Shown here piece after piece: positions 4,336-60,927 of a stretch of 64,000 nt of DNA. The stretch spans positions 32,001-96,000 of the forward strand of contig CM000434.1 in the NCBI GenBank assembly GCA_000165345.1. The letters are read 5' to 3'. A program made the translations under genes and the position numbers. Every line of letters begins with the position of its first letter. Within the stretch, counting starts at the first letter, position 1. The notes beneath the pieces are model-generated. The model was not told where the DNA came from, made no database searches, and saw only the letters and a list, made by a program, of their open reading frames with translations.

Positions 4336-5140
4336 TTATTTAGATTGAAAAGTAGACAATTTAGAGAATGGAAATGGGTTAGAAAAAGCTCCAGCAAATA
4401 CAGCAAGGTTTTAGGAATGAAGTATAAGAGATTTCTTTGTACTTATGCTTTTGGCTCGTTTCAAAAATGTAGAATGTACATGTAAAACAATAATTTTTTT
4501 AATATTCCAGTAAGAAATCTATGTTTTCTTACTGTACCTTTGTTATAACAATAGTAATGTTAATAATAAAAACAATATTAATTTAACCAGAAAAAAGGTT
4601 AATGTTGTATAGTAATGCCTAAAAGATTTCCTTTAAAGCTTTTTAAATTAGTATATATTTTCTGGAATGTTTCTGAAAGATTTATATTCTGATTTTTTCC
4701 CAATTTTCTCCTTTTTCAGCTTAGCTTTTCTTTTTTGACAGTCCAAATAAAAATAGTTGTGGCGGGTTATTTTAAAAAGTAATTTATTATAGATAATATT
4801 TAAAAGAAACAAGATAAGAAAGGGGAAGAAGGATAATGGAAAGGATGATGATAAAATAGGTAATATAGAGTAATTTTTTGTGTTTTCAGAATCAATTCTG
4901 TGAGATTTTATTGTGGATATTCGGGCACATAAAAGAGGGAATAAGGCAAGATTAAACTCTAGTGGTTCTATAACAATTAATTAAAAAAAGCTTAAACTAA
5001 GAAAGTTTTTTGTGAGGGGGAACGTTCTAATATTTTACAAGACTTTCTTTATATTCAAAATTATACTTGAGATTATAAAATCTTCAGCAGCATGCAAACT
5101 TTCCAAAAACTATAATTTTTGCAAAGTGATTGCGGTAGCT

Positions 5141-5230
5141 GTAAGTAAATCAGGACAGGACGAGGATTGGCGGTAAAATAGGTGCAGGTGTCCCGCCATC
5201 CATTAATTGCGCGGCATTGTGAAGTAAGGC
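5141..5230. promoter_or_regulatory. GC-rich island (about 50% GC) with a perfect 9-bp-stem hairpin in the bidirectional intergenic region between the two NHE paralogs.
   Basis: The sequence ggattggcgg-taaaataggtgcaggtgtc-ccgccatcc forms a stem of GGAT(T)GGCGG with CCGCCATCC. It is flanked by gcgcggc, in otherwise more than 80% AT DNA. Confidence 0.35.
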
Positions 5231-8136: not shown

Positions 8137-8405
8137 GAATACAATAAAAAAGTCAATTTTTATTCTAAACTATTTTTATAATACTTATATTAATTTGAAT
8201 GCATCCATATAGAGTATTGTATAATTAACAATGAAAATCTTAAGCGATGATTTTTAAATAAAAATCAAGTAGGAACTTTTTTTTTATTTAGTATTTTCTT
8301 AATTACATGTATAACTTTTTTTTTGTAAATTGCATTGAATTTTACCTTTAGATGGCTAAGCGCTAAAAGCGGTACCGAATTAATTCCTGGTAATATAATA
8401 GGGAA

Positions 8406-8414
8406 TTAGGCGGG
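8406..8414. promoter_or_regulatory. TTAGGCGGG motif with an adjacent GGCGGGAAGCCTGCC hairpin.
   Basis: This is one of four TTAGGCGGG copies. The others are at 47141-47149 (+), 14013-14021 (-) and 51558-51566 (-). All lie 150-530 bp upstream of a gene start. Confidence 0.3.
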
Positions 8415-8862
8415 AAGCCTGCCAAAAATAAAAAAGTTTATTGAATAATATTTAATTCAATCAAAAAAATAATTAAAAATCTAAAAGAAAGGCAAGGAGA
8501 TAAATAAGGTTGAATTAGGATCAGAGAATTAAAAGGTAGGAATTTGATTAATTAGCTAAAGCAGTGAAAACCAAGACAGTTTGATACTTTTATCACTAAA
8601 GCTGAAAATAATTAATATTAGAGTTGCAACTGATTATTGTGTGGGCATTAGTGCTTGTATCAAAGAAAACTTTACTAACAAACTTTGTATATTTAGAAGA
8701 ATAGTTAAAAGAAGTCATCAAAATAAAAGAATATCCTGAGCGATCATTAGCTGAAGAATAGTTTGAAGAAATTTTGTTTGAATAATTAATTGTATATATA
8801 TAAATATAAAATTATCTATGTATATTTATATTTGTGGATTTCATTGGATGTTAACAATATAA

Positions 8863-12400: not shown

Positions 12401-12542
12401 TTATATTAGGGAATATAGCAAATTTAGTTTTGATTCTATATTATAAATATCATATATATATATATATATATATATATTGGTTGTGAAAGTAGTATTTAAG
12501 TTATATCTATATCATCTTTCAAATAGATCTTTTTGTATATTT

Positions 12543-13486: not shown

Positions 13487-14051
13487 TTTTTACATAATAA
13501 ACAAAATGAGAAAAAAACTAATTTATATATTCAAAAGGTTCAAAATTTTTTTTCAATATATTTCATTATTAAATTGTCAAATTAATTAAATATTAAATCG
13601 AGTGATGGCTCGTCAGCGTTGAATTTTTTTTTTTTTTTAATTAAAATATAATAAATCAATGCATAAATAAAATGAGTAATAATTATTTAATTAATTTAAT
13701 TTTGTTTTAATTAGTAATCAAAACAAGTTTATTAAATATTTTCAAACATAATTCAAAGTAAAAAGGTAGCACTGCATTTAATATAAAAGATATATTTAAT
13801 TTATTAGGTACTTGGCATTATTCAAGCCTAATTCATTGAATTGATGCCATGTACAGTAAGGACAAATAGTCAATGCTTTAAACTGAAATAGCTACAAAAG
13901 AAATATTTACATGATATATTTTTTGCGATAATTTAACACAATTTTTTCTTGTTTGAATTGTGAAATAGTTTAGATTTAACACTTTGTCATATGGGTCATT
14001 TCCACACAGTGCCCCGCCTAAACACTTGAGAAATAATAAATATGGAGGAAA

Positions 14052-15068: not shown

Positions 15069-15490
15069 TCCTCTTGATTTCTCAATTGTGCCTATTTAAT
15101 AGAAAAAAAAAAAAATTGCGAATTATTAATATAATTACATTATTCAAAATAAAATCAATTCAGTTTATATCAACTTACGGTCAATTATCTTTAAATATAT
15201 ATTTAAAGAGTCTACGGAACTCATTCTGCTTTCCCTTATTTCTTACTATTCCCCTATTTTCCTTTTTCAATATTGTTTGTTTCTATTCACACAACAAAAT
15301 TATTTGTAAGCTTATTAATTATCCTTTTTTTTACAATAGTGTATTCACTTCTACCCTAAATATAATTCAATATTCCATTCCCTTCCTTCCAACTCCCAGC
15401 CCTCTTTAATTTCCGTTAAATTAAAAAAAAATTAAAAACTTAATAATACACGTAATTATTTAATATAATTACTAAGAAAATAATATTTCA

Positions 15491-15504
15491 TTTGGCGCCA
15501 AAAC
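15491..15504. promoter_or_regulatory. Candidate E2F-type site TTTGGCGCCAAAAC.
   Basis: A palindromic GGCGCC core with T/A flanks matches TTTSGCGCSAAA. It lies in an AT-rich intergenic region about 430 bp upstream of the minus-strand gene at 14052-15068. Confidence 0.3.
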
Positions 15505-16414
15505 AAACTCCATTAAATTCTATAAATTAATCACATTTAAAAACTAGAGAAAATATTGAATTTGAAGTAAAATCAGCCTAAACTGCTTTGTAGAAAATTT
15601 TATAGGAAATAAAGATGATATGAAGGTTGCTATTATTATTACTATTATAATCATTGCTACTGTTTCTAAAAAAAAATTTTAAAAAACATCTTTTCTTCAA
15701 TTTTACTAAACTTGTATCATTTCTTAATCTTAAACTTCATTGAATTATTTATTATTCAAATTCTTATCATCAAATTTGAGTTTATAAATTCATTATTTAG
15801 AAATTACTTCTAAAAAACAAGTTCCCAAAATTTGCACTTTTGCACTTTTTTAAATTAGCCCCCACTGCCCCCCACTATAATTGACTGGTAGGCTTACCAC
15901 ACAAATAATTTGGCATGCAATATTAAATATTTATAATAGTTAAACTTAGAATATGAAAATATAACCATTTCTGAGAATTTTATAAATATCATTAATAGAA
16001 AGAAAATTTTGAATTATTTTAATAAATTCAAGTATTATTTAAATAATAAAAAAACATACATTTACCTTATTTTATATTAAATTTAAGTTCAGTTGAGTTA
16101 ATTGGAATTGAAATCATTAATTAATATCAAGCAATAAAAAATAATAAGAGCTCATCTTTATTTCTTGGAGCTAATACTATAAATACTGAATATTAAAATT
16201 ATTAAATAGGTATTTTGTTTTACATTAAAGTCTGATAATATATATAAATATTATATTATAAATATATTTATATTATATATAATATATTCCCAGTAGATTC
16301 TAAAATTCAATTAATAAAGATAAACATTTCCAACCTTAATTTAAAACCAACCCCTTTATTAATATAAATATTATTATGTAAACACATCATTTATATTAAT
16401 TGAAATCAATAAAA

Positions 16415-18244
16415 ATGAACTTTGAAAAATCTTCGAACTCATTAGAAACTATCAACTACAATACTGAAGAAATCAATAATTCCAATTCATATAGTCAAAG
16501 TTGTAATACTATAGCAGAAGAACAGTTGGCAATTTTAGATTCAAATCTCTCAAAATATTCGGATATATTTAAAATCCAATCAAAAAGTGTTTCTCAATCA
16601 GAAAGTGAACATGAAGATATCTTCCAAAAATTCACAAATGATGAAAAAAATAAAAAGTTTCTTGAAATTAAAGTTTGGGAAGAAACTAGAATTGAAAAAT
16701 ACCAACATTTTATTAGTGCTATTGATCCAATTTTTACTGAACTTTCAAATTCTATCTCTCAAGCAATGCAAACTAATAAAGATTTGGCTACAATTCTACA
16801 ACAAAAAACCAAGTACTGGAATAGTTACTCAAAGAATCTGGAACTAATTTCTCAATATGGATCAAAAAATGGACATAGTAATACTCATATTCATAGTTCA
16901 AGTAATCCATGTCCATCTTGCTCTTCTTCTGCAAAGTCTTGCTCTTGCTCGTGTCCATTAGTTACTTTTTCATCATCAAATAGCTTCCTAATACAATTAA
17001 AATCAGGAGAACTAAAGAACCAATATAATCAAGATGAAACTAATAATGAGAGTTTACATGAAATTATTATGAACCAGGAACTTAAAGATTCGAATAATAA
17101 TAATAATAATAATAATAATAGTAATAATAATGAGTATTCAATTTCAAGTAATTTACTGAGTTCTATTTCAAGTCAGAAAGTCTGGCCAAATTTACTTGTA
17201 AACTTTGGAAGATACGAATCAACTTTTCTTAAAAAACTTTGTCAAAGTATTGAAACTGATGTAGTAAATGGACATCTTTCATGGATATCTAAAAGATATC
17301 TAAATAATGCTCAATCATACTTAAAGGCATTACGTATTGCCAGAAAAGAATTTGAAACATTTATTAATAATGCACAACAATCTTGGAATAAATATGATGA
17401 CGCATTTAAAAAATCACAAAGACTTAGTTTAGATGTAAATTATTCAATGAAAAATAGTAAACCATGTGATACTTGGTATTTTGATCAAATCTATAGACAT
17501 AATATTAATAAGTTTATTCAAGCCCAAACAAAATTTTTTGAAACAATACTATTAACTATTGATAATCTGATGGAGCTTGAAAATTGGAGAGCAACTTCTG
17601 TTAAACTTACATTTAATTACTTCTTGGTTAAACAAAATGAACTTTTTGAATTTCTTCAAAAACTTGGAAACTCTATGATTGATTATATCAATGATCAAAA
17701 CAAACAAAACTCTTTATTTCAAGACCACTATGCAAACTTTGATATTATTACTTCAATTCCTGGTCTAAGACCACCCCCAATACCTATTTCTAATGAAGCA
17801 AATTTCTCAAAAATTTCTCAATCGCTCTCAAAATGTCCTATTTTACAACAAATTTCAACTCTAATGAATTATAATAATCTTCCAAAATCTTCACTAATTA
17901 TTTATCACGGGCATGTTGAAATTTTTAAAAGAAAGATCTTCCTTGGGCAATGGCAATCTGCTTATATAATACTCACAAAAGATAAATTCCTTTATCTTCT
18001 TAATCCAAGAGATGATATTGAAATGGAGGAGCTTCTAAAGCATGATGAAAAACCTATCTGGTCTTTTTTTATTGGATCTCAAGATATATCTATAGAACTT
18101 AATGAAAAGAGAGGAAAAAGATGCCTTAGTATTAGATTTAAAAAACAGAAATTCTTCACCAAGAAAATGACCATTAGATGTTCAAATGAAGAAGAGTGTA
18201 GTAAATGGATGAATTATCTTAATTCGGTAATCCCTCCATATTAA
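16415..18244 (+). CDS. Hypothetical protein with a C-terminal PH-like domain, a possible BAR-like N-terminal region, and a poly-Asn insert.
   Basis: The C-terminus LIIYHGHVEIFKRKIFLGQWQSAYIILTKDKFLYLL...KRCLSIRFKKQKFFTKKMTIRCSNEEECSKWMNYLNSV fits a PH fold, including the terminal W. There is an N12 run in the middle. Confidence 0.5.
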   Translation: MNFEKSSNSLETINYNTEEINNSNSYSQSCNTIAEEQLAILDSNLSKYSDIFKIQSKSVSQSESEHEDIFQKFTNDEKNKKFLEIKVWEETRIEKYQHFISAIDPIFTELSNSISQAMQTNKDLATILQQKTKYWNSYSKNLELISQYGSKNGHSNTHIHSSSNPCPSCSSSAKSCSCSCPLVTFSSSNSFLIQLKSGELKNQYNQDETNNESLHEIIMNQELKDSNNNNNNNNNSNNNEYSISSNLLSSISSQKVWPNLLVNFGRYESTFLKKLCQSIETDVVNGHLSWISKRYLNNAQSYLKALRIARKEFETFINNAQQSWNKYDDAFKKSQRLSLDVNYSMKNSKPCDTWYFDQIYRHNINKFIQAQTKFFETILLTIDNLMELENWRATSVKLTFNYFLVKQNELFEFLQKLGNSMIDYINDQNKQNSLFQDHYANFDIITSIPGLRPPPIPISNEANFSKISQSLSKCPILQQISTLMNYNNLPKSSLIIYHGHVEIFKRKIFLGQWQSAYIILTKDKFLYLLNPRDDIEMEELLKHDEKPIWSFFIGSQDISIELNEKRGKRCLSIRFKKQKFFTKKMTIRCSNEEECSKWMNYLNSVIPPY

Positions 18245-18473
18245 TTCATACTTTTGAGATTTGTATCAAGAATTTGAAGTAGTAAAAATAATAACATCAA
18301 CATTAAATTATTATCAAAGTTGAAATAAACTGAATAAATACATAAATTAATACATTTATATATATTTATATATCTCATCTCATTTAGAATAAGATATATT
18401 ATAATCTCATTTACTAGATATATCTATCTATATCTGAAATTTCTTTGATAACATTAATAATTGTTTAAAATTC

Positions 18474-19847
18474 TTAATGATGATGATGACGTCCACCAGT
18501 TATTGTAGTTTGAATAATTTCTTGTTGTTGTGAAGCCATTGTTGGTTGTACAACAACATTTCTTATGCAAGTACCATTAGCGTTAAGAGTTGTTCCAGAT
18601 GGGCAATTCAATGTTGATGGAACGATTGATTTACATAATCCTTTATCACCATCAGTATATCCAACTGGACATCCTAATTCACCAGGAACAGTTTGGGTAT
18701 CAAAGCATTTCTTTCTTGGGACTTCCTGAATAACTGGAATTGGTTGTACATATGTTTGTTGAACATATGTTTGAATTGGATAGTATGCATTATGATGATG
18801 ATGATGTGAAACACCTCTCTTTCCTAATCTTCTAGTAATAATTCCAGCTGGCTGATTGAAATTCTGAGATCCTTGTTCATATACATATTGGCTTCCATAA
18901 CCAAGACTCTTAACAGATTGTTGTGGTGAGTTTCTGAGTGAATAGTATTTACCATCATAGAATTCATTTGTTGGCTTTGGGGTTGGGTTTGGACATTCCA
19001 ATTCTGCTGGAACTGTAATAACTTCAACACACTCTCCATTTGCGACCATTGAGCCATTAGCACATCCTAAAGTTGGTTCAGTTGTTGATGTATATAAACA
19101 TCCAAATCCTGTCAAACTTTTTACTGCTCCTTCTGGGCATATCATTTGTGCTGGAACTGACTCACTTCTTGAGCATGTTCTTGAAACAACAGCCTGTGGA
19201 ACAACATAGCTTGTTTGATGATGATGATGTCCATGTCCATGTCCATGATGTGAAGTTGTTGTATATCTAACTGCAGTTGCAGCTGGAGTGCAATCATATA
19301 AAACTTCTCTTACACATCTTTCATTACTAACTAAAGTGAAATCAGGTGATGGACAGGTACTAATTGGGGATACACTCTTTTGTAAGATACATTCATTTTG
19401 CATTTCATTTAAAACTCCTTGCATACATTTCTTGATTGGTGCAACAGTCTTTGAGCCACTGCACATTTGACCGTCAGTTAAAGTAAATCCTGATGGGCAT
19501 ACAGCAACTGGGTCGATCTCAACATTCTTTTGACACATATTTTCACCTACCAATGTATATTCCACTGGACATTTCATGATTGGGTTTGTTGTCTTCATAC
19601 AATTAAAATCGCTCATTAATTCTCCTCCATTCAAGCAGACTCTTTCTGGCATTATCTCCTCTCTAGCAACGCATTGTCTATTTGAATCCAAAGTATATCC
19701 TGTTGGACACACCATTGTTGGAACGTTGACTACGGAGACTGTTGAAACTGCTTGTTGTTGATGATGATGATGATGATCTCCAGCATAACAACTTAGTGGC
19801 AACATTGCCATCATAATAATTGTATTTATCTTTCTTAACGATATCAT
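18474..19847 (-). CDS. Secreted Cys-repeat protein with four His runs and about 13 copies of C-P-x-G-[YF]-T-L-x(5-7)-C.
   Basis: ATG at 19847. The signal peptide is MISLRKINTIIMMAMLPLSCYA. His runs are GDHHHHHQQQ after the signal, SHHGHGHGHHHHQ and VSHHHHHN internally, and a GGRHHHH C-terminus. Repeats include CPTGYTLDSNRQC, CPVEYTLVGENMC, CPSGFTLTDGQMC, CPVGYTDGDKGLC and CPSGTTLNANGTC. Confidence 0.8.
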   Translation of the reverse strand: MISLRKINTIIMMAMLPLSCYAGDHHHHHQQQAVSTVSVVNVPTMVCPTGYTLDSNRQCVAREEIMPERVCLNGGELMSDFNCMKTTNPIMKCPVEYTLVGENMCQKNVEIDPVAVCPSGFTLTDGQMCSGSKTVAPIKKCMQGVLNEMQNECILQKSVSPISTCPSPDFTLVSNERCVREVLYDCTPAATAVRYTTTSHHGHGHGHHHHQTSYVVPQAVVSRTCSRSESVPAQMICPEGAVKSLTGFGCLYTSTTEPTLGCANGSMVANGECVEVITVPAELECPNPTPKPTNEFYDGKYYSLRNSPQQSVKSLGYGSQYVYEQGSQNFNQPAGIITRRLGKRGVSHHHHHNAYYPIQTYVQQTYVQPIPVIQEVPRKKCFDTQTVPGELGCPVGYTDGDKGLCKSIVPSTLNCPSGTTLNANGTCIRNVVVQPTMASQQQEIIQTTITGGRHHHH

Positions 19848-20130: not shown

Positions 20131-20234
20131 TCCACATGAATGCATGCATGTAACGTGCACATCAAAATTTGCATACCGGTATTATGTTTTTTTTTGTTTA
20201 ATATTACTAATAATTACTAATTTGTCCACATGAA
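20131..20234. promoter_or_regulatory. Composite motif cluster: TCCACATGAA...CATGCATG...ACGTG...ATACCGGT plus a second TCCACATGAA.
   Basis: TCCACATGAA at 20131-20140 and 20225-20234, and ATACCGGT at 20173-20180. The cluster is about 280-390 bp upstream of the His/Cys gene start at 19847. The same bipartite motif recurs at four other loci. Confidence 0.4.
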
Positions 20235-25284: not shown

Positions 25285-25297
25285 ATGGCGCCAAAAC
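25285..25297. promoter_or_regulatory. Candidate E2F-type site ATGGCGCCAAAAC followed by ACGTAC.
   Basis: It lies in the intergenic region between the divergent G-patch gene (start 24951) and the Beclin gene (start 25463). The core is the same as at 15491 and 30553. Confidence 0.3.
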
Positions 25298-30248: not shown

Positions 30249-30552
30249 CTTTTTCTATTTCCTTTCAGTTGAGGAGAAATAGCAGTAATAACAGAAAAAA
30301 AACAAGATTTCTTTTTGATCTTTCAATATTTTTCTCACTAAGCTTTGTTTTCACGTTTCTTCTAGTTTGATTTCCCACCTTTCTATTATTCAAATCTTTT
30401 TCTTTATGCTTTGATTCTCGAATTTATTTACAATATTTTTCGCAAGCTATTCTCACAATTATACCTATATGCACTAATACTTGCCTTTGCAAATATTTAT
30501 CTCAGCATTAATTTAAATTTAATTTATTTTACCGATACCTTTTTCCCCACAT

Positions 30553-30563
30553 TTGGCGCCATA
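30553..30563. promoter_or_regulatory. Candidate E2F site TTTGGCGCCAT about 305 bp upstream of the MCM6 start codon.
   Basis: TTTSGCGC matches the E2F consensus. MCM genes are canonical E2F targets in animals and plants. It is the only GC-rich element in this promoter. Confidence 0.4.
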
Positions 30564-32404: not shown

Positions 32405-32473
32405 TCCACATGAAATAATTTTTTATATACCGGTCAAAAATTTACACGTAAAATTGTATTTTTCAATACCGGT
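32405..32473. promoter_or_regulatory. Composite motif TCCACATGAA-N12-ATACCGGT, followed by ACACGTAA and a second ATACCGGT.
   Basis: 32405-32414, 32427-32434 and 32466-32473. It lies about 330-400 bp upstream of the DGAT2-like ATG at 32806. Confidence 0.4.
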
Positions 32474-34228: not shown

Positions 34229-37200
34229 TCAATAAATATCACCAAAATCTATATTCAATAAACGAGAATGTCTTCCATAGCCATACTCATCTTCAATTCC
34301 TTTCTTCTTTATTGCATTCATTGATATACTGGTAGTCTTTCTGTTCTCATTATTATTATTATTATTATTATTACTTGTAATATTACCACAAGATCTTATT
34401 ATATCTTCATCATTTGGTATCTTTCTTTGAAGAGAAACTATGTGATCACCTAAAGATAAAGCAATACCTTGTGTCCTACTTCTTATGCGAACTGTTCCTG
34501 TTATCATCATTTTTGGCTCCTTTTCTACTCCTTCTCTTTGATTATTACTAACCAATTGTTTTTCTAAACTTATATTAACTAGAGCATCCTCTCCAAAAAT
34601 ACTTCTTGCATACAAATTTGTAGCAAAGAAACTTGACTTCTTATCCATCATTATTAAATGATTTGAATTATCACTCTCATTATTATTATCATTATTATTA
34701 TTACTAGTATTAGTATTACTACTCTTATAAGTACCGATATTTATACCGGTACCATTACCACCAATCATCATCATCATCATACTTTCAATACTACTATAAC
34801 CTACCAATGATAATTTAGTTTCTTTGATCAAATATTTTAAAAATTGTATAAAAGAGTCACAACTTGTATGTATTGGAATTTTATTTTCCCATTCAAATTC
34901 TGACCATAATTGTCTAAATAATGGACAAGGAATATTTGAATTAGTAATGAAATCAATCAAATCTATACTAATTTCATTCAATACCACAATATCATTCAAA
35001 CCTAATAATTGAGATGATGATGATGATACTGCTCCGGATCCTATTCCTCCTCCTAATCCATCATTTTGAGAATTTTTGGTTTGAAATGTAACAAAACCAA
35101 ACAATATTCCAGTCTCAATAGATTTTACTTGTGCAACAGAATAAACATGAATAGTATTTCCAGGATCTAAATGATTAATATTTTGTGGTTTTTCTATTAC
35201 TCTTAAATTTCCATAAGGATATAATTCAATTTGTACGTTTTGAACTGCTTTATAACTTTGATTAGTTACTATCAATTCTAATAATACATCTTGATGTTGT
35301 ACTTGAAGTATTGCTTCTATGTAAATTGGATCACTTAAACCTGTTATTGAATATATTCTTTTAGATGTATTAGATTGATCAATACTTCCTTTTTTTCCAT
35401 TATTCGAATTTTTTATATTTAAAGGATCCATTACCATACTATCATCAAAACATTCAAATTCATCATCATCATCATTAATCTGTGTTATATCCACATTATT
35501 TGAAAATACTTTTTCTCTAAATTGTCTAAAATTAACAACATTATATGGAAATCTTCTTGAGGAATTCTTATTTAAACGTTTATTCTCTTTAAATAACTCT
35601 CTCAACTTCATTCCACCATTAATTCCTCCTCCAAGTTCAATTTCATTCCCTTCAATTCCTTGAAACTTTGGAAATAATTTCCTTCTTAACATGATTGTTC
35701 TTTTACTTAATCTAATCAATTCCAAATCTTTAAGATCTTTTTCATTTCCTAATTCTTCTTCATTCTTTTTCAATTGATCCAAATCATTGTAAATTGATTT
35801 AAGTAAAATATAACAATGACTTAATCTATGAGTTGNATCNTNCNNNANNCCNCCANNNNTNTGNTCATTTAAACAATNNNNTAANNAGCANNCNNTANTN
35901 TNAANANNCTTNTTAAANGTANNTANNNCTAAATNCAANATATTTTCTTCNTNCTTATTTTTTCCTTGTTCATCTTTAATTCCAATATTATTAGAAAAAC
36001 ATAATAATTTTATTAATGAAACTCCAATACTTGCAATTAAAAGTAAATCTTCATCTCTAATAATAATATTTCTCAAGTTATTAGTAGTAGTAACTCCAAT
36101 ATTATAACAATTTCCACCTTCAATACCTGTTGAAGAAGAATTCAATTGGGAATTACTAGTTCCTAATAAATTTGTAGAATTCATATTATTATTAGCACCA
36201 TAATATCCATCAACATTACATTCCAAATCCTGAGTTGCATATGTTCCATCNTCCANNNNNNCNNNTNNNGTCNACTNNNTTTGTCATGNATAAGTATTTC
36301 CTACTCCTACCCCTCCTCTTTTAGCAATCTTATCATTATCAATAAAACTATCATTATTAGAATTATTATTATTATCATTATAATCATAATCATCATCATC
36401 ATTGTAATTATCATTTCCCATTAAACTTTGACTAGCTCTTCTATTTGGATGATTTCTTATTTTAATAGGTAAAGGTTCCAAAGAATTGTAAATTACATTA
36501 ATAATATCAATAATCTTTCTTTTATCATTTCCATATTCACATTCACTTAAAATCCATAAACAAGTTCTTAATGGTCTACTGAATTGTATTAATGATAAAT
36601 GAATTATTAATTGATCAACAATTTCATATTGATATTCTGAATAATTAACAACCATTTCTCTAAGAAATTGAATAATTTCATTAACAATAATAGGATTTGA
36701 ATTGGATAAAAATGTCATCATTGAATTAATCATAGGCTTAAAAGTAATTTTATGGTATTTTCTTGTAATCTCATGTAATGCTTTAATTAATATTAACTGA
36801 TAATTTTGAAATTGTTGAAAATCAGATAATTTCCCTCCTCCATAATTCATTGTTCTTAATCCACCAAAAGCTTCTGCTCCTCCCATTCCAAAACTATTAT
36901 CATCATTATTATTATAGTAATTAAAGTCAATATCTGCAGTAAAATGATAAGTTTGATTAAATTCATGATTACCAAATCCAGCAATATTATGATGATGATG
37001 ATGAACAGAGTTATTATTACTACTTCCATTATCATTAACATTATTATTATTATTATTATTATTACTATTGTTATTACTATTAAACTTATAATTTTGAAGT
37101 GAAATATCTTGTAAATGTTTTAATAGAAATTGAAATATATCCAAACAATTATTTTTAGTTAATAATGATGACAACACAATTTGAATAACTTTAATCTGTA

Positions 37201-38371: not shown

Positions 38372-38794
38372 ATTATTATATATTTGATATATTATTCTTT
38401 CTTTTATATATTAATAATAAATTTTAATCTTCAAAAAAGAAAGAAAATTCTCATATATAAATATTTATATTTAAAGAGGATGAAGATTTAAATTAAATTG
38501 ATTCCAATTTAATTCAATAGTTTTTCTTTAATTAAAGAAAAAAAAAAAACTTCACACCCCTCTTTATTAGAATAAATTTGATTACTTTTTTCCTTTCTTA
38601 AAATAATAATTTATATATATTTATTTATTCTTGCATTTTAACTTGAATAATTAATTCTTTATTCTAAATATAATTATTGCTCTTTAGTAATTTTCTTTCT
38701 TATATTTATTATTAAATATTATACACGTAATAAATAAATGATTAAAATCAGGCGGGCCAAGCTGGCGCCTGTGAGGACTGTGGGGGAATATAAA

Positions 38795-42530: not shown

Positions 42531-43253
42531 AGAAATTTGTCCATTTCTTCATATTATATATATGCAATATAAATATAATATATTTAATTATTTATTTAAA
42601 TAGTAGTTTATTTTGATGAAATTTAACTTTTTTCGAAATATAAAATTTATTATATAAATTTGACCATTTTACTATTTTACGATACCTTATTCTTGAATTT
42701 TTATTATTATTTTGAATTTCTTCATTTTTTTTTAATTCTGATTTATTTCTAATTAATTTTTTTGTTTAAACTATTATTATGTTTTTAATTAAATTCAAAA
42801 TAATAATAAAAAAAATTCAAGATCTTTTCTTTACTCCAATTATATTAATTAATTTTTATTCATTATTTAATTTTTTTCTTAAAAATCAATGCAATAAGCC
42901 ATAAACATGCAATGCATTTTTTTTTGTTTAATTTTTACCCTCCCCCCAATTTAACATACCTAATATATTATTCTCTTATATAATAATTTGACCAAAGTTT
43001 TGGCGGGCTGACCATTAATTTTTTTTTTATTAATATTTTTTTTAATGATTTAAAGTTATCCTCACTGAAAAAGACCAAATTTGTGTTTGATTAAAATAAT
43101 TAAATATAGATTCTTCAATAATGGGAATTAAGAAATGATATATTATTATTTCTTGCTCACTTGAATTCTTAATGCATTAAGAATTTAAATTTTGAATAAA
43201 AGCAAAAATAATATAAATTTTAAAGAGAATAAAAAAAGTGAGTGAGATGATAA

Positions 43254-45316: not shown

Positions 45317-45345
45317 TCATGTGGACAATATTACATAATACCGGT
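45317..45345. promoter_or_regulatory. Composite motif TTCATGTGGA-N11-ATACCGGT-GCATGC, with the first half inverted.
   Basis: It lies about 200 bp upstream of the ATG at 45540 and is flanked by CATGCAAAAAAAA and TGCATGCAAAAA repeats. Confidence 0.4.
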
Positions 45346-45539
45346 GCATGCAAAAAAAAAAAAAAAATGCAAAAATGCAAATGAGTGATATGAAAAGGAA
45401 AATAATTAAATAATAAAAAAAAATAACAATAATTTAAAAGTCCCCTTTTTTAATATTAAAAGAGGAAAGAAATAAAATATCATTTTTTAGATTGATATAG
45501 ATAATTTTCTAGGAAAGATATTTCAAGTAGAAAACAAAG

Positions 45540-46537: not shown

Positions 46538-46824
46538 TTATGATTAATTACCTTAATATTACTAATTAATTTCATTATTAATGAATTATGAATTTGAAGA
46601 AAAAGGGTAATGAGAAACTTTTATGAACAAGACAATAAATTATTTATAAACAAGTCGTCCATCAAATATAATCACAAAAAAAAGAAAACAACTCTTCATA
46701 TTCCCTATCTTTGTTATTCTTTCATTTTTTTTGATAATTTTCATTTATATTATAAATTCATATTGCTAGTAATATTATTATTCACTATTAATATTTATAT
46801 TTCTTCTATTTTTGCCTTATCAAA

Positions 46825-46893
<69 letters not shown>

Positions 46894-47624
46894 ATAATCT
46901 AATAAAACTATTTTCACATTAATAAACTAAAGATCAAAAAAATAAAGAAATTAAACAAAATCGTCATTAATATTTTCTCACTTGAAAAAAAAAAGTGCAC
47001 ATTTTAGCGCCAATTAGAATTTTAATTATTTGATGAATTTGTGTGATGTGCTGTTAATTAGTTTAAACGAATTTATTTAATTAAATTGAAATGGCGCGCA
47101 AACTTTATTGAGTATTTCCATGTAATGCTATAAAATAGTTTTAGGCGGGAGACTTGCTAATTACTGTTAAAGTCAGGAAAAATGAAGGCAAAAAAAAAAT
47201 AATAATAAAATTTACAAGGGGAAAAAGCTGTTAATTACAATATTTATGTAGTTAATAAATAAAAGGTTTAGTGATCAAATTGATAAAAAAGGAAATCGAG
47301 GAGGAAAGTTGTAAAATATAGAACTTTTTATACTGAAAATATTAACATACAAGTTAAATAATAATTAAAACAAAAGAAAAAAATTGCTTCTTTTGATAAT
47401 TGAATTATTCATTCGATTGGTCTGGTAATGGAATAAATTTAAAAGAGTGAATGGGAATAAAGATTATTTTATTACATTGAGATTGATAGTTTTTTAAACT
47501 ATTTCAAATTTTTTAAATTTGAAGAATTGAAATAATTATATTAAAAAATAATATAAATATTGATTCAATTCATCATCTTATAAATCATTTAATAAAATAA
47601 TTTGAATTATATTTGGAAAATAAA

Positions 47625-50051
47625 ATGTGGTATTTTGGAATATTCACAGCTTTATTATCATCCATTTTGGGTGGATTAGGCGATAATTTGATTAGATTGA
47701 GTTTTACTTTAGAAGAAGAGTTAAACCATAAAGAAAGAAGACCAGTTATTTTAAGACCAATTTGGATATTAGGTGTACTTTTTTCGTGTATATTAAATGC
47801 AATATTAATAATAATTAGTTTAAATTTTGCATCAGCAATGATAGTAACTCCATTTTCTGGCTTACATATATTTTGGAGTATTATATTTAGTAAGTATATT
47901 TTAAATGAAGAAATAAAATCAAGGCATTATAAAGGTACAGGTTTGGTAATTTTTGGATTATTATTTATTATATTATTTGGTATCAAAGATGTACCAGTTT
48001 ATAATGTACATGAACTCGGTATATTATATTCACAACCAAAATTTGTTTTATATTGCTTTGTAAATATTTCATTTATATTAATTTGTACATATTTATCATT
48101 TTTTGGACTGGATGGGACTGAAGAAAATAAATACAAGAATGAAATAAACATAAATAATACATTATCAAATAATAAAATTGAAAATAATAATATTGAGCAA
48201 AATGATAATAATATTAATAGAAAATCAATTAAAGATATTATTATTTTAAATAAAAATACTTTACATTTAAAAATTTCGAATTTGAGAGATTATTTAAGTA
48301 AAAGTAAATATATCGAATACGAAAAGAATGTTTCTGTAATGGATAACTCAGATTTAAATTATAATTCTAATGAAAATGTAATTAGAACAATGGATATAAA
48401 AAATGATAATATTATAGGTGATGGATATATGAATAGTAATTCTGATATTAAATATGGATTTGGAAGAGAGAATAGTATATATGAAAGTAATAATGTGGGA
48501 TTTTATAATAAAATATTGAATTATATTAATAAGATAGAAAAAAGAATTGATATAATTAATTCATTATTTATTGAATTAACAAAAGGATTCCCAAGAGTTG
48601 AGATATCAATACCAATTAAAAGATTTTGTATTTGTTCAGTATCAGGTCTTATAGGAGGATATACAAATGTTCTTGTACAGAATTTGATACAAATAATATT
48701 AATAGATGGAGTATATACTCTAATTCATAAATTAACATATCAACTTTTAATTATGATACTTATTACAGGCTCAATACAATGGGCATTTTGGAATACTGCA
48801 TTATCAAAATATCAAGCAATTTTTGTTGTACCTATAGTTAATTCAGTATTAATTGCATCCAGTGGGTTTTGTAATTTAATGCTTTATTATGACAATCAAT
48901 ACGTATCAAATTCACTTTTGGGGATATTTTTTAAGATGAATTTTCTACTTGGACAATCTCTTATTTTAGTTGGGATTTATATTATAAGCAGAGCAAATAG
49001 AACCATAGTAAATGAAAATAATAACTTGGATAATAATGATATTAATAGTAATTCAGTTAATGAAGAGAATATTTTTGATTTTAGTGAAAATTCTCAAACA
49101 TCGGATCCAATAAATAATAAACTTTATTTATATTTAGAATCAAAATTTTCTAATTTTGCTGATATTACCAGTTTTTTTAAAGCTAAAAAAGAGAAAATAA
49201 GTTCTTCTTTGGAAAGCCTTCTTGGACTATCTAGAAACCAAAATTTATCCAATAATCATTCAACTTCTTCGTTACCTAACACTAAATATTTGAAAAATAA
49301 TAATCAATTCTATATTAATAATACTATTATTCTTCCTCAAGAAGAATATGTTGATGGTCAATCTACATGCATTCATGTGGATAATTGTCAGGCGGCAACT
49401 GCCAATACCGGTATTCAAGTAGAAAAATCTCAAATTAATGTGGAAAAAAATTATTTATCATCCAATAATAATATTAACCATTTAAATGACCAAGAAGAAA
49501 TGGATATTGTAAGTCAGCAAATTATTATGCCAATAAATACAGAGTATTCTTTGAATACTTTAGGACAACAAGAAAATATTACTGATACTGACTATAACAA
49601 AAAATATGGAATTGAGTTAGAATCATATGTTTTGGATGAGTATGATATTGATGATTTTGAGATTCCTTTTTCAAATCAAGATTATACAGGAAGAGAAGCA
49701 ATGATTTTACAGAATATGGGAGGAAATTATCAATATGAAGATTATGTCAATGAACAAATAATTAATACTAGTTCAATGCTTAGTTTTGGGGATGATATAT
49801 TGGAAGAAAATATTACACAGAATTATTATGAAAGCGACTTAATGGCAACTAAAGAAACTGAATATAATGAGGATTTTACTACTAATAATCATAGTCATGC
49901 AGTCAATTCAGGTTTCAGTCATAATATTCAAAGCAATGAAACTGAAGTTAATATAACAACTAGTGATTTAAAGTTTGATTGTAATCCAAGTCTTTCAACA
50001 TGTTCAACTAATTCTACTGTACTAAATTCCTTTATTACCAATATTTTATAA
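47625..50051 (+). CDS. NIPA-family (DUF803) Mg2+ transporter with a long Asn-rich central insert and C-terminal extension.
   Basis: The N-terminal half AMIVTPFSGLHIFWSIIFSKYILNEEI is comparable to the NIPA block [27 protein letters not shown]. The second half ...CSVSGLIGGYTNVLVQNL...IQWAFWNTALSKYQAIFVVPIVNSVL has the NIPA topology. The last about 350 aa are low-complexity. Confidence 0.7.
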   Translation: MWYFGIFTALLSSILGGLGDNLIRLSFTLEEELNHKERRPVILRPIWILGVLFSCILNAILIIISLNFASAMIVTPFSGLHIFWSIIFSKYILNEEIKSRHYKGTGLVIFGLLFIILFGIKDVPVYNVHELGILYSQPKFVLYCFVNISFILICTYLSFFGLDGTEENKYKNEININNTLSNNKIENNNIEQNDNNINRKSIKDIIILNKNTLHLKISNLRDYLSKSKYIEYEKNVSVMDNSDLNYNSNENVIRTMDIKNDNIIGDGYMNSNSDIKYGFGRENSIYESNNVGFYNKILNYINKIEKRIDIINSLFIELTKGFPRVEISIPIKRFCICSVSGLIGGYTNVLVQNLIQIILIDGVYTLIHKLTYQLLIMILITGSIQWAFWNTALSKYQAIFVVPIVNSVLIASSGFCNLMLYYDNQYVSNSLLGIFFKMNFLLGQSLILVGIYIISRANRTIVNENNNLDNNDINSNSVNEENIFDFSENSQTSDPINNKLYLYLESKFSNFADITSFFKAKKEKISSSLESLLGLSRNQNLSNNHSTSSLPNTKYLKNNNQFYINNTIILPQEEYVDGQSTCIHVDNCQAATANTGIQVEKSQINVEKNYLSSNNNINHLNDQEEMDIVSQQIIMPINTEYSLNTLGQQENITDTDYNKKYGIELESYVLDEYDIDDFEIPFSNQDYTGREAMILQNMGGNYQYEDYVNEQIINTSSMLSFGDDILEENITQNYYESDLMATKETEYNEDFTTNNHSHAVNSGFSHNIQSNETEVNITTSDLKFDCNPSLSTCSTNSTVLNSFITNIL

Positions 50052-50784: not shown

Positions 50785-51711
50785 TATTCCCCTTTTTACT
50801 ACTAACAACAGATTTTTTTTTTAAAATCCCAATACACAATTCCTTTTTTTTTTTCTCCCTTAACTTTATTCTAAGTAGTTATTAATTATATCACTCAAAT
50901 CTGAATATCTTTTTTAAGTTAAATCAATATTCCTAATTTACCGTATATCTGCTCAAATGTAAACAACTTATTTAAAAGTTTCTTTTTATACTTAATAAAT
51001 TTGATTAATCCACAGATTAATAAAGAAAAGAAAATCAAGGCTTTTTTTAATTATTAATATATTCTTTGAAAATAGAAACGAAAAAAAATGTTAATATTGG
51101 TAGTAATATTAGTGCTAGTAATAGAAATAGCAGTGTAATGAACAGTGGTAATAGTAATTACAGTATTATTTTATTACTATTAGTAGTGCAGTTTTCCTGG
51201 TATAAATATTAATAATAAAAGTAATATTTATCAAGAAGAAGGAAAAAAAACTCGGATTTACAGTTTTATTTGGTTTTAGTTGTTTAACTATTCTCACCAA
51301 ATAATTAATGTAAAATTTGTATTTTAATTTTATTGATTGAAAAAAAAAAATACAATTAATTCAAGTTTCTAAACCCTCAGTAATTAAAGAACCAAAATCT
51401 TTTCAAACTGACTACTCTCCATTCATTTATTAGATCTTTTCTTCTTTTTTTTTTTAATAAATATAAATAAAATAATAAATTTAATTATTTTATTTTCTCC
51501 ATTCTGCACACAAAGATAACACGTAATTATTACTAATATAATTTTTTCATTCACTTTCCCGCCTAAATTTTTACTATTTTTTTTTAAGAAAATTTATGAG
51601 ATATATATTGTGGGACAAAAGTAATAATATATAAATACAATAAATATATTTTTGAAATTAGTATCGAATAAAAAAAGAAAGGAAATAAAGAAGAATTATA
51701 TTTTGATTATA

Positions 51712-52639: not shown

Positions 52640-53930
52640 CATGAAAAATTAAANGANNCTNTTGATATGATATGCATCGCAAATCATCATCTATTTGATC
52701 GTTTGTATTAATATTATTACTTTGAATAAATCTAGTAATATTATATTCAGTACATGTAATAAATTCTGTACCTTTAATATCCCAAGATATACAATTTGTT
52801 GGATAATTTGTTTGATTAATTATTGAATAAATTAATATTAATTTACCTCTTTTTTTCTCATATAAATCCCATCTCCATATACCTATCCAAGGTATACCAT
52901 TTATATCTTTAAATACTTGATTTATATCATCTTGCTCAGTTTTATTATCGTTATCATCATTATCATTATTATTATTATTATTGGTATTGGTATTAATATT
53001 ATTGGTATTATTTGTATTATTATTAATTATATTATTATTATTATTATTATTATTATTTATATGGTTTNGGGTATTATTTAGAGTATTATTTTGAATATTA
53101 TCGCCATTTATACCTATTATTATTACTCATTATATATTATTATTATTATTATTTAATTATTATTATTATCACTATAATTACCATTTTTGTTGAGCATTAT
53201 TATTATTACTAAAATAAATAAAAGAATCATGGCTTGTAGCAAGTATTNCATAATTTCTTGAGTAATTTGGACACCATTTAACAATCTAATACATAATTTC
53301 TTAATAATCCTGTTAATACATCATCCTCATTTTTATTATTATTTCGAGTATTAATATCTTTTGTATCATATAAACAATCCCATGTAGAAAATAATTCATT
53401 AGATTTTTTATCAATATTATCATCATTATTTATTTGATTATTATTAATAACATTATTACTATATTTGATCATCCATAATAGAATTTAATTTAATAAAAAT
53501 ACTTATCATACCATTATTTGAACCAATAGCAATCAAATTCATATTATATATATCATTTTCAATAATTGTTAAATTATTAATAAATGAAAATGATGTCATT
53601 TGATAACTATTGATTGATATATTACATGTAAATTGTTCTATGATTGACCAATTATGAAATAATGGTGAATCTTGACAAGAATATATTCTAAAATGACCAT
53701 CTTTTGTAAATACTATCAATGATATATTGATTGTTGATGTATTGATTGTTAATTTATTATTATTTTCATAATTTAATATAAAACTTGAATTAATTATTGT
53801 ATTTCTTGAATCTCTTAATCTTGCTGTCATATTACAAATTCCACCCAATTTATTAATATTATTATCAATATTATCGATATTATTTTGAGTATTATTATCA
53901 TTATTATTTAATAATGATTGTGAGGATGTA
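52640..53930 (-). CDS. Hypothetical protein, possibly WD-repeat-like. Its N-terminus is lost in the assembly gap.
   Basis: The minus-strand ORFs 53459-53848 and 53278-53472, plus a further open frame 52640-52960 (...WIGIWRWDLYEKKRGKLILIYSIINQ...CISWDIKGTEF...), read towards the N-gap. Scattered 'n' bases lie at 52645, 53068 and 53248. Confidence 0.3.
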
Positions 53931-53990
53931 TTTTCAATTGGTAATTTTAATATATCTCTATAATTTTTATTTAATAACCATNNNNNNNNN

Positions 53991-56481
53991 NNNNNNNNNN
54001 NNNNNNNNNNNNNNNNNNNNNNNNNNNNNNNNNNNNNNNNNNNNNNNNNNNNNNNNNNNNNNNNNNNNNNNNNNNNNNNNNNNNNNNNNNNNNNNNNNNN
54101 NNNNNNNNNNNNNNNNNNNNNNNNNNNNNNNNNNNNNNNNNNNNNNNNNNNNNNNNNNNNNNNNNNNNNNNNNNNNNNNNNNNNNNNNNNNNNNNNNNNN
54201 NNNNNNNNNNNNNNNNNNNNNNNNNNNNNNNNNNNNNNNNNNNNNNNNNNNNNNNNNNNNNNNNNNNNNNNNNNNNNNNNNNNNNNNNNNNNNNNNNNNN
54301 NNNNNNNNNNNNNNNNNNNNNNNNNNNNNNNNNNNNNNNNNNNNNNNNNNNNNNNNNNNNNNNNNNNNNNNNNNNNNNNNNNNNNNNNNNNNNNNNNNNN
54401 NNNNNNNNNNNNNNNNNNNNNNNNNNNNNNNNNNNNNNNNNNNNNNNNNNNNNNNNNNNNNNNNNNNNNNNNNNNNNNNNNNNNNNNNNNNNNNNNNNNN
54501 NNNNNNNNNNNNNNNNNNNNNNNNNNNNNNNNNNNNNNNNNNNNNNNNNNNNNNNNNNNNNNNNNNNNNNNNNNNNNNNNNNNNNNNNNNNNNNNNNNNN
54601 NNNNNNNNNNNNNNNNNNNNNNNNNNNNNNNNNNNNNNNNNNNNNNNNNNNNNNNNNNNNNNNNNNNNNNNNNNNNNNNNNNNNNNNNNNNNNNNNNNNN
54701 NNNNNNNNNNNNNNNNNNNNNNNNNNNNNNNNNNNNNNNNNNNNNNNNNNNNNNNNNNNNNNNNNNNNNNNNNNNNNNNNNNNNNNNNNNNNNNNNNNNN
54801 NNNNNNNNNNNNNNNNNNNNNNNNNNNNNNNNNNNNNNNNNNNNNNNNNNNNNNNNNNNNNNNNNNNNNNNNNNNNNNNNNNNNNNNNNNNNNNNNNNNN
54901 NNNNNNNNNNNNNNNNNNNNNNNNNNNNNNNNNNNNNNNNNNNNNNNNNNNNNNNNNNNNNNNNNNNNNNNNNNNNNNNNNNNNNNNNNNNNNNNNNNNN
55001 NNNNNNNNNNNNNNNNNNNNNNNNNNNNNNNNNNNNNNNNNNNNNNNNNNNNNNNNNNNNNNNNNNNNNNNNNNNNNNNNNNNNNNNNNNNNNNNNNNNN
55101 NNNNNNNNNNNNNNNNNNNNNNNNNNNNNNNNNNNNNNNNNNNNNNNNNNNNNNNNNNNNNNNNNNNNNNNNNNNNNNNNNNNNNNNNNNNNNNNNNNNN
55201 NNNNNNNNNNNNNNNNNNNNNNNNNNNNNNNNNNNNNNNNNNNNNNNNNNNNNNNNNNNNNNNNNNNNNNNNNNNNNNNNNNNNNNNNNNNNNNNNNNNN
55301 NNNNNNNNNNNNNNNNNNNNNNNNNNNNNNNNNNNNNNNNNNNNNNNNNNNNNNNNNNNNNNNNNNNNNNNNNNNNNNNNNNNNNNNNNNNNNNNNNNNN
55401 NNNNNNNNNNNNNNNNNNNNNNNNNNNNNNNNNNNNNNNNNNNNNNNNNNNNNNNNNNNNNNNNNNNNNNNNNNNNNNNNNNNNNNNNNNNNNNNNNNNN
55501 NNNNNNNNNNNNNNNNNNNNNNNNNNNNNNNNNNNNNNNNNNNNNNNNNNNNNNNNNNNNNNNNNNNNNNNNNNNNNNNNNNNNNNNNNNNNNNNNNNNN
55601 NNNNNNNNNNNNNNNNNNNNNNNNNNNNNNNNNNNNNNNNNNNNNNNNNNNNNNNNNNNNNNNNNNNNNNNNNNNNNNNNNNNNNNNNNNNNNNNNNNNN
55701 NNNNNNNNNNNNNNNNNNNNNNNNNNNNNNNNNNNNNNNNNNNNNNNNNNNNNNNNNNNNNNNNNNNNNNNNNNNNNNNNNNNNNNNNNNNNNNNNNNNN
55801 NNNNNNNNNNNNNNNNNNNNNNNNNNNNNNNNNNNNNNNNNNNNNNNNNNNNNNNNNNNNNNNNNNNNNNNNNNNNNNNNNNNNNNNNNNNNNNNNNNNN
55901 NNNNNNNNNNNNNNNNNNNNNNNNNNNNNNNNNNNNNNNNNNNNNNNNNNNNNNNNNNNNNNNNNNNNNNNNNNNNNNNNNNNNNNNNNNNNNNNNNNNN
56001 NNNNNNNNNNNNNNNNNNNNNNNNNNNNNNNNNNNNNNNNNNNNNNNNNNNNNNNNNNNNNNNNNNNNNNNNNNNNNNNNNNNNNNNNNNNNNNNNNNNN
56101 NNNNNNNNNNNNNNNNNNNNNNNNNNNNNNNNNNNNNNNNNNNNNNNNNNNNNNNNNNNNNNNNNNNNNNNNNNNNNNNNNNNNNNNNNNNNNNNNNNNN
56201 NNNNNNNNNNNNNNNNNNNNNNNNNNNNNNNNNNNNNNNNNNNNNNNNNNNNNNNNNNNNNNNNNNNNNNNNNNNNNNNNNNNNNNNNNNNNNNNNNNNN
56301 NNNNNNNNNNNNNNNNNNNNNNNNNNNNNNNNNNNNNNNNNNNNNNNNNNNNNNNNNNNNNNNNNNNNNNNNNNNNNNNNNNNNNNNNNNNNNNNNNNNN
56401 NNNNNNNNNNNNNNNNNNNNNNNNNNNNNNNNNNNNNNNNNNNNNNNNNNNNNNNNNNNNNNNNNNNNNNNNNNNNNNNNN
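53991..56481. other. Assembly gap of about 2.5 kb of N, flanked by low-quality sequence with scattered n at 56482-56960.
   Basis: A direct run of n. The ORFs at 53914-56511 and 53967-56504 in the track are poly-X artefacts of this gap. Confidence 0.99.
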
Positions 56482-57177
56482 AANTNCCCAGGNAAAATTC
56501 CCAAATTTTAAAAAATTTTTAAAAAAGGATTANTNAAAAANTATTTNCTTNCCCNTTTCNTCCCCGGGGAAATCNAGGAAAAANTCNAAATCTCTTTGGA
56601 AAAGGAAANTTTAACCTNTCGANGGTATCCCCTTTTTTTCCCNTTTTTANNCGNNTNNAAAAAAAAAAGNTTANAACCATTATANCCCNTCCTTGGCCCT
56701 TTAAANTAAAATTANNGCTTTAAAAANTNNNAAAATTTTTTTTTAAAANAANAATTTTNGACNTTAATTNATATTAANAAAANNAAAATTCCCCCATTGG
56801 GGCNCAAATTCTNTTTNTTTTTTTTTTGGTTATATTGATAGTGATAANTNGCATGNTTATTNCAATTTTGNCAAGTAATTTAATAAATTAATATTTTAAT
56901 TTTGATTAATCATCTAAATTAATAANTTCTTTTTGGTNCTNGTTGATTATNACTTGATTCATATTTAGTATGNCTTTTATGATTACTATTTCTATGCTTA
57001 GAATTCTGATGATAATCTTCTGGACTATTATCATGATGTTTATGATGACTACGATGATTATTACTATGACCATGATGAGTATGGTGATTATGATGATAAT
57101 GATTATAATGACTTTCTGATCTATTACTTGATATAGAATCATCATGAATATGTTTCTTTCTATTATTTGAATGATTA

Positions 57178-60876: not shown

Positions 60877-60927
60877 TCCACATGAGAATAATAACAAAAT
60901 TTAATGAAAAAATTGGAAAATACCGGT
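60877..60927. promoter_or_regulatory. Composite motif TCCACATGAG-N33-ATACCGGT, preceded by ACACGTCA and CATGCATG.
   Basis: 60877-60886 and 60920-60927. It lies about 500 bp upstream of the start (60377) of the minus-strand coiled-coil gene. Confidence 0.4.

Follow-up and report, generated by a model that had tools for sequence, protein, structure and literature searches.

The four copies of the GC-rich 9-mer TTAGGCGGG found in the 64,000-nucleotide stretch analysed here (the window) are real, evolutionarily conserved promoter elements, and they are instances of an element which is already known, the published 'E2F-like' motif 4 of Cryptosporidium parvum with the core GGCGGG. On sequence evidence it is likely that the four copies are transcription-factor binding sites of the GGCGGG 'E2F-like' family, most probably bound by E2F/DP and promoting transcription. 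No new element is added by this work; the gain is a set of four individually mapped and phylogenetically footprinted sites (eight with the related cores), among which the TTAGGCGGGAGACT island 5' of the NIPA gene is the best footprinted one. The motif papers cited do not describe the present sites, or their cross-species conservation, one by one.

Sequence context and gene map

The window, with 99.6-100% identity to Cryptosporidium parvum assemblies, is the left part of chromosome 6 of this species. An identity of 99.97-100% was obtained for positions 1-19748 with BX526834.1 and CP029785.1, both of which carry the identical sequence for the 294-aa protein encoded at 8863-9747, the region from 37.6 to 62.3 kb has 98-99.7% identity to two chromosome-scale assemblies, and the NIPA protein (47625-50051) is 100% identical to a C. 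parvum Iowa II 'hypothetical protein'. The open reading frames are long and mostly unbroken under the standard genetic code, whereas the ciliate code, considered in view of the AT-richness, led to nonsensical overlaps between reading frames. The gene map was built from the genes called on public assemblies, and it leaves 14.9 kb of intergenic DNA with 19.6% GC beside 46.5 kb of genic DNA with higher GC content; the sequence-only reading, made from the letters without database searches, had put the intergenic part at about 25 kb and about 15% GC, figures which are corrected here. The gene names given in that reading were supported by Pfam, which assigned Mg_trans_NIPA to the NIPA gene, Longin and Synaptobrevin to the VAMP7-like gene, and Hikeshi-like_C to the C. 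felis and C. canis orthologues of the Hikeshi gene. The genes served by the four copies are presumed to be cgd6_150, cgd6_170, cgd6_320 and cgd6_340, a numbering derived from a single locus tag, CPHLJ_6g320; a look-up of these four names in the accessible part of the supplement of Oberstaller 2013 returned prefix matches to other genes only.

A run of N of 2.5 kb is present at 53982-56481, where the complete assemblies have only about 260 bp, and single Ns are scattered at 35836-36289, 52654-53248 and 56484-56973. The Ns are located inside low-complexity, Asn-rich coding regions, and the run has the look of masked sequence or of an assembly gap whose size was set arbitrarily, and not of a biological feature.

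Occurrence of the 9-mer and of the GGCGGG core

The four copies lie exactly where the sequence-only reading had placed them, on the plus strand at 8406 and 47141 and on the minus strand at 14013 and 51558, and the distances measured to the ATG of the adjacent gene, 148-526 bp, agree with the 150-530 bp it had reported. Copy 1 (8406-8414, +; extended 8406..8417 as TTAGGCGGGAAG) stands 448 bp 5' of the ATG (8863) of the 294-aa GLTSCR-domain gene and 272 bp past the stop of a Na/H exchanger gene. Copy 2 (47141-47149, +; extended 47141..47154 as TTAGGCGGGAGACT) is located 475 bp 5' of the NIPA ATG (47625). Copy 3 (14013-14021, -), in which TTAGGCGGG is followed by GCA, precedes the ATG of the VAMP7-like longin/synaptobrevin gene (13486, minus strand) by 526 bp and lies about 30 bp past the stop of the preceding 361-aa gene. 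Copy 4 (51558-51566, -; extended 51555..51566 as TTAGGCGGGAAA) belongs to a divergent spacer whose two genes, Hikeshi (ATG 51712, +) and a 177-aa gene (ATG 50784, -), start 148 bp and 773 bp away from it, respectively; the orientation of this copy is opposite to that of Hikeshi, and it reads TTTCCCGCCTAA on the plus strand.

The related GGCGGG cores noticed earlier at two other places are real, their coordinates having been one or two bases off: AGGCGGGCC starts at 38750 and not at 38752, and TTGGCGGGCTG at 43000 and not at 43001. The former (38750..38758, +) is situated 532 bp 5' of the coatomer-beta ATG and 9 bp past the stop of a 617-aa gene, with a GGCGCC 7 bp beyond it, and the latter belongs to TTTGGCGGGCTG (42999..43010, +) in a divergent spacer, where the ATG of a 613-aa gene is 216 bp away. 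Two further cores had been overlooked, one at 4761..4766 (+) in the divergent spacer between two Na/H exchanger genes and the other at 5192..5197 (-), 155 bp 5' of the second Na/H exchanger ATG, where ATTGGCGGTAAA adjoins it at 5166-5177.

Copy 3 and the 38750 site stand about 30 bp and 9 bp, respectively, 3' of the stops of preceding same-strand genes. With such short gaps the presumed promoter element of the next gene overlaps the probable 3' UTR of the previous one, which fits a very compact genome and possibly also the polycistronic transcripts that have been reported.

It was clearly seen that the number of copies is beyond chance, as had been claimed: the 9-mer is matched 4 times, whereas 100 shuffles with the dinucleotide composition preserved had a mean of 0.03 matches and in no case attained 4, and within intergenic DNA the 4 copies compare with 0.013 expected under an order-2 Markov model (Poisson P ~1e-9). 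The compartment bias of the core is equally marked. All eight GGCGGG sites of the window (8/8) fall into the 14.9 kb of intergenic sequence and none into the genic part, which is three times longer and GC-richer, and over nine loci from six Cryptosporidium species (231 kb) 36 sites are intergenic against 3 genic, the intergenic sequence making up 27% of the total. With 8 intergenic occurrences against 0.28 expected, GGCGGG was the top 6-mer outside low-complexity sequence in an unbiased k-mer screen of the intergenic DNA, followed by TGGCGC, GGCGCC and then TGCATG. Promoter proximity was judged by the distance to the ATG, and by this measure every GGCGGG site of the window lies in a spacer with at least one promoter, 148-586 bp from an ATG. 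E2F-like cores in general were detected in 11 of the 20 promoter-bearing spacers against 0/7 of the convergent spacers, the latter being short.

The functional unit

When the eight sites were aligned with 40-bp flanks, the invariant columns were the six core bases only, and with this lack of flanking similarity the copies are not pieces of a dispersed repeat. The flank profile of the 39 GGCGGG sites collected from the six species is TTT[A/T]GGCGGG[A/C], with A in 17, T in 17, G in 5 and C in 0 cases at the base before the core (-1). There is a trend among the 39 sites for A at -1 to go with A at +1 and for T at -1 to go with C at +1, the sites being orthologous and thus non-independent. As the flanks are degenerate over the 39 sites, the exact 9-mer represents one spelling of a slightly degenerate site, and the GGCGGG core, together with T-rich sequence on its 5' side and A- or C-rich sequence on its 3' side, is what constitutes the functional unit. 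The original description of the motif as a 9-mer consequently holds as far as the existence of the element is concerned and fails in its boundaries: A at -1 is exactly as frequent as T, and copies 1 and 3 show no conservation of the outer TTA.

Conservation in other Cryptosporidium species

The window was compared with the syntenic loci of five further species (C. meleagridis, Cryptosporidium sp. chipmunk genotype I, C. ubiquitum, C. canis and C. felis). Conservation was scored as the presence of the core per orthologous spacer, evaluated with shuffles; this presence test was adopted since in the MAFFT alignments of copies 1 and 3 the site of C. felis was wrongly placed. Of the 28 orthologous spacers, 22 have an exact GGCGGG, in every case on the strand that carries it in C. 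parvum; the chance expectation per spacer (from composition or shuffles) is 0.00-0.10, with the exception of a GC-rich 1.8-kb C. felis spacer (0.56). In the species that have no exact core at one of the four copies a one-base variant (GGCGGT, AGCGGG or TGCGGG) occupies the aligned position.

At copy 1 the orthologous site reads GGCGGTAAA in chipmunk genotype I, AGCGGGAAA in C. ubiquitum and GGCGGGAAT in C. felis. The 14-mer TTAGGCGGGAGACT of copy 2 is identical in five of the six species (C. parvum, C. meleagridis, chipmunk genotype I, C. canis and C. felis), C. felis keeping it despite its diverged surroundings, and C. ubiquitum has TTATGCGGGAGACT instead; among all 14-bp windows of the NIPA upstream alignment it ranks first in conservation, 0.3% of the windows scoring as high. 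At copy 3, where chance would give 0.004-0.022 occurrences per region, a same-strand GGCGGG was identified in three species, chipmunk genotype I, C. ubiquitum and C. felis (TTAGGCGGGCTG). Chipmunk genotype I, C. canis and C. felis share copy 4 with C. parvum, and one-base changes are seen there in C. meleagridis (GGCGGT) and C. ubiquitum (AGCGGG). GGCGGG is present at the 42999 site in all five other species, and three of them, C. meleagridis, C. ubiquitum and C. felis, retain the 38750 site.

Only copies 2 and 4 show conservation of the outer TTA; at copies 1 and 3 it is replaced by GTG, GTC, GTT or TCT, with GCGGGAA or GGCGGG kept. In the per-site conservation ranks the core falls into the top 2-20%, and the full 9-mer is near the median at copies 1 and 3; these ranks are modest because the closer species show a fair degree of conservation throughout their spacers. 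Retention at orthologous positions of this kind is what functional transcription-factor sites would show, and it suggests that the sites are under purifying selection. Together with the confinement of the core to non-coding promoter spacers, it bears out the earlier proposal of a non-random, promoter-proximal cis-element.

The upstream region of NIPA and neighbouring islands

Around copy 2 a non-coding block of about 170 bp (~47030-47195, 430-600 bp 5' of the NIPA ATG) is near-invariant from C. parvum to C. ubiquitum, while the NIPA proteins themselves are only 69% identical. Besides copy 2 the block contains GGCGCGCAAA and the conserved stretches AAATTTGTGTGAAATGCTG, AGTATTTCCATGTAATG and CTTGCTAATTACTGTTAAAGTCA. 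A companion E2F-like core, GGCGCG (47093..47098, within TGGCGCGCAAA), stands 45 bp 5' of copy 2 and is conserved in five of the six species. A third core is AGCGCC at 47006-47011, for which chipmunk genotype I and C. ubiquitum have GGCGCC. A dense promoter, a 5' UTR and a non-coding RNA missing from the annotation are all conceivable for the block. Rfam returned no family for the whole window at the gathering threshold and no match for the NIPA spacer (46538-47624) at E-values up to 1, and no tRNA gene was found by a tRNA gene scan. A weak hairpin, GGCGGGAGACTTGCT, is possible at copy 2; it was flagged by a bacterial promoter/terminator scan of the NIPA spacer, which is meaningless for a eukaryote.

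A second conserved island, TGGCGCCAAAAGCGGTACCGAA, was observed about 45 bp 5' of copy 1 (8355-8380) in chipmunk genotype I, C. ubiquitum and partly C. felis. In C. parvum the E2F-like core of this island has decayed to AAGCGCTAAAAGCGGTACCGAA, and GCGGTACCGA is invariant.

Correspondence to the published E2F-like motif

Oberstaller, Joseph and Kissinger (2013, PMC3734150) described 25 over-represented upstream motifs in C. parvum, of which motif 4, with the consensus TTTGGCGGGAAV and the core GGCGGG, was grouped with motif 3 ([C/G]GCGC[G/C]) as 'E2F-like'. Motif 4 was over-represented in 47 expression clusters, and the E2F-like motifs were over-represented upstream in 163 of 200 clusters, with no characteristic expression class (PMC3734150). 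The genome-wide enrichment analysis that the sequence-only reading had recommended has in effect been published already in that study. An even earlier sighting of the motif, as over-represented in the non-coding DNA of chromosome 6, is credited there to Bankier 2003 (as cited in PMC3734150), and a GGCG-core motif was located upstream of all ten glycolysis genes examined by Mullapudi 2007 (PMC1779779).

Copies 1 and 4 match the consensus TTTGGCGGGAAV at 11/12 positions, copy 2 and the 42999 site at 10/12 and copy 3 at 9/12. Allowing at most 2 mismatches, the consensus has 14 matches in the window against 4.2 expected, a count reached in 0/100 shuffles. All four copies have A instead of the consensus T just before GGCGGG, and the A-rich flank of copy 3 is poor (GGCGGGGCA). 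A literature search with the 8-mer TAGGCGGG matched only unrelated primer sequences.

Cores of the motif 3 type are also present in the window, at 10038, 10044, 15494, 25287 and 30555, within the canonical E2F sites 10038-10049, 15491-15502, 25287-25292 and 30552-30560. A perfect palindrome, TTTGGCGCCAAA, stands at 15491 and a tandem, GGCGCCGGCGCC, at 10038, and TTTGGCGCC is located 306 bp 5' of the MCM6 ATG in the MCM6/TatD divergent spacer. DNA-replication genes, the class to which MCM6 belongs, have been reported with over-represented E2F-like motifs in C. parvum (PMC3734150).

Proposed mechanism and alternative explanations

In the proposed mechanism one E2F/DP winged-helix heterodimer of the parasite would bind the GC core, with the T-rich and A-rich flanks completing the site. 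Binding would take place in open, nucleosome-free chromatin a few hundred bp 5' of the start codon and upstream of the transcription start, might work in either orientation, and would promote the transcription of the adjacent gene or genes. E2F/DP as the binder, the activating sign and the placement relative to the transcription start sites are inferred parts of this proposal. Cryptosporidium is the sole apicomplexan genus that has retained E2F/DP, and C. parvum has two E2F (cgd1_1560, cgd6_1430) and two DP (cgd7_3650, cgd8_1850) genes (PMC12246861), three putative E2Fs having been given in 2013 (PMC3734150). According to published data E2F and DP are expressed mainly in the early asexual stages (PMC3734150). 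In Arabidopsis, TTTCCCGCC and TTTGGCGGG are sequences that direct the binding of E2F/DP (as cited in PMC3734150). In sporozoites E2F1- and E2F6-type motifs lead, beside a poly-T motif, in the regulatory peaks obtained by ATAC-seq (preprint, bioRxiv 10.1101/2025.01.17.633476). No retinoblastoma-family orthologue is known in C. parvum (PMC3734150), so that the control would presumably be exerted via the abundance of E2F/DP and not by release from a pocket protein. Several points speak against this mechanism, namely the A in place of the consensus T before the core in all four copies, the poor A-rich flank of copy 3, the modest per-site conservation ranks, and the genes near the copies, which encode a trafficking SNARE, a Mg transporter, Hikeshi and a GLTSCR-domain protein and do not count among the classical targets in the cell cycle; in C. 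parvum, however, the motif is tied to no expression class (PMC3734150).

The sites could also be conserved cis-regulatory elements read by a different kind of factor, a C2H2 zinc finger recognizing an Sp/KLF-style GC box or an ApiAP2 protein, in which case TTAGGCGGGA would be a sub-motif distinct from the E2F site TTTGGCGCC; we regard this as rather unlikely. That E2F/DP is the reader of GGCGGG in Cryptosporidium is itself a prediction, and C. parvum encodes about 27 C2H2 zinc-finger proteins and many ApiAP2 proteins (PMC3734150 Table 2). In the sites themselves the only hint in this direction is the A that replaces the consensus T before the core in all four copies, an A kept in six species at copy 2 and in four of six at copy 4, along with the -1/+1 pairing trend (A with A, T with C) over the 39 sites, which however is drawn from non-independent orthologous sites. 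Against a non-E2F factor, the opposite strand fits the E2F consensus at copy 4 (TTTCCCGCC) and copy 1 (CTTCCCGCC), and canonical [C/G]GCGC[G/C] cores occur in the same conserved blocks at copy 2 and at the 38750 site. Moreover, GGCGGG is absent from the ApiAP2 binding motifs listed for C. parvum, namely TGCATGCA, GCACAC and the G-box (PMC12246861).

A related idea, which we consider quite improbable, is that TTAGGCGGGA, with A before the core and an A-rich 3' side, forms a distinct sub-class of GGCGGG sites having its own regulon apart from the TTTTGGCGGGC and TTTGGCGCC sites, and that it is read by one E2F/DP pairing of the two-by-two set or by a non-E2F factor. This reading, which would be moderately interesting if true, draws on the A that copies 2 and 4 keep as far as C. 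felis and on the trend of the -1 and +1 bases to covary.

A function of the 9-mer in RNA, or as some structural signal (for instance a UTR element or a hairpin), in place of one as a DNA binding site is highly improbable. Copy 3 and the 38750 site, 9-33 bp past stops, are probably transcribed, either in 3' UTRs or in polycistronic spacers; E2F-type motifs are also found in spacers inside polycistronic transcripts (bioRxiv 10.1101/2025.01.17.633476), and copy 2 could form the weak hairpin mentioned above. On the other hand, the sites occur in both orientations relative to the nearest gene, copy 4 being antisense to Hikeshi and the 38750 site antisense to both of its neighbours, neither a hairpin nor a flank is common to the copies, and Rfam was negative both across the window and, at E-values up to 1, in the NIPA spacer. 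The variable orientation to the neighbouring genes and the lack of anything common beyond the core make an RNA-level role unlikely.

Chance occurrence, or an origin as remnants of a dispersed repeat or mobile element, is excluded by the shuffles, by the flank alignment, in which the six core bases alone are invariant, and by orthologous retention where the flanking sequence has diverged, even though the sample is small (four copies in one 64-kb window).

Binding by E2F/DP is the reading that we prefer for the four copies. E2F-like motifs are the most abundant type of promoter element in Cryptosporidium, the only apicomplexan genus with E2F/DP. The mapped sites would be convenient targets for gel-shift, CUT&RUN and promoter mutation, CRISPR being available for this parasite.

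A second promoter module

A bipartite module of TCATGTGGA and ATACCGGT, seemingly unreported, was exposed by the k-mer screen. TCATGTGGA has 6 copies in the window, of which 5 are intergenic against 0.03 expected; its partner is the palindrome ATACCGGTAT, and ACCGGTAT was counted 7 times in intergenic DNA against 0.09 expected. At five places TCATGTGGA and ATACCGGTAT are separated by 12-34 bp, and TGCATGCA or CATGCAT is often found alongside. The parts of the module were mapped to 20131-20180, 20225-20233, 32405-32473, 45317-45352, 49373-49414 and 60877-60927. Four modules are in promoter spacers, those of a 457-aa gene, DAGAT, a 243-aa gene and an 845-aa gene, and one is inside the NIPA coding sequence. 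C. meleagridis, chipmunk genotype I and C. canis have conserved the module that precedes the 243-aa gene. For the module within the NIPA coding sequence, conservation was seen in C. meleagridis and C. ubiquitum, chipmunk genotype I keeping the CATGTGGA half only.

The four promoter spacers bearing the module (TCATGTGGA/ACCGGT) have no E2F-like core, and the 11 spacers with an E2F-like core have no module. This zero overlap among the 20 promoter-bearing of the 27 intergenic regions (hypergeometric P ~0.03, in a small sample) hints at two promoter classes, one with the module and one with the E2F-like core. The strings TCATGTGGA and ATACCGGTAT are absent from the text of the C. parvum motif papers cited here, and they were not found by a literature search either; the module of TCATGTGGA and ATACCGGTAT may merit follow-up more than the original 9-mer.

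Comparison with known systems

The Sp1/KLF GC box, GGGCGG, is a short GC-rich promoter element. The present sites resemble it in being short, GC-rich and located in promoters and in containing GGCGG; however, the four copies read AGGCGGG and are without the GGGCGG hexamer. In the regulatory literature cited here no Sp/KLF-type regulator is described for Cryptosporidium.

Motif 3 of C. parvum (DTTGSCGCCH, core [C/G]GCGC[G/C]) is a member of the same family, stands in the same kind of spacer and is sometimes found beside GGCGGG (47093 next to copy 2, and 38764 next to the 38750 site). Its core GGCGCC is palindromic, whereas GGCGGG is asymmetric, and TTAGGCGGG is no instance of motif 3.

The canonical E2F/DP site, TTTSSCGC, is matched exactly by copy 4, which reads TTTCCCGCC on the plus strand, and copy 1 resembles it as CTTCCCGCC on the opposite strand; in both systems GC cores between T and A runs are located in promoters. 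Unlike the canonical sites, the C. parvum motif is spread over most promoters and not over S-phase genes alone, and the classical Rb-E2F switch cannot apply in an organism that has no retinoblastoma-family orthologue (PMC3734150).

The closest likeness is to motif 4 (PMC3734150). It was described in the same organism and on the same chromosome, shares with them the GGCGGG core and its flanks, which are T-rich on the 5' and A-rich on the 3' side, and is likewise an upstream non-coding site in either orientation with no single expression class; 9-11 of its 12 positions are shared by the four copies. It differs from them in the flanks, in that the four copies have TTA and not TTT 5' of the core, and copy 3 is without the AA of the 3' flank.
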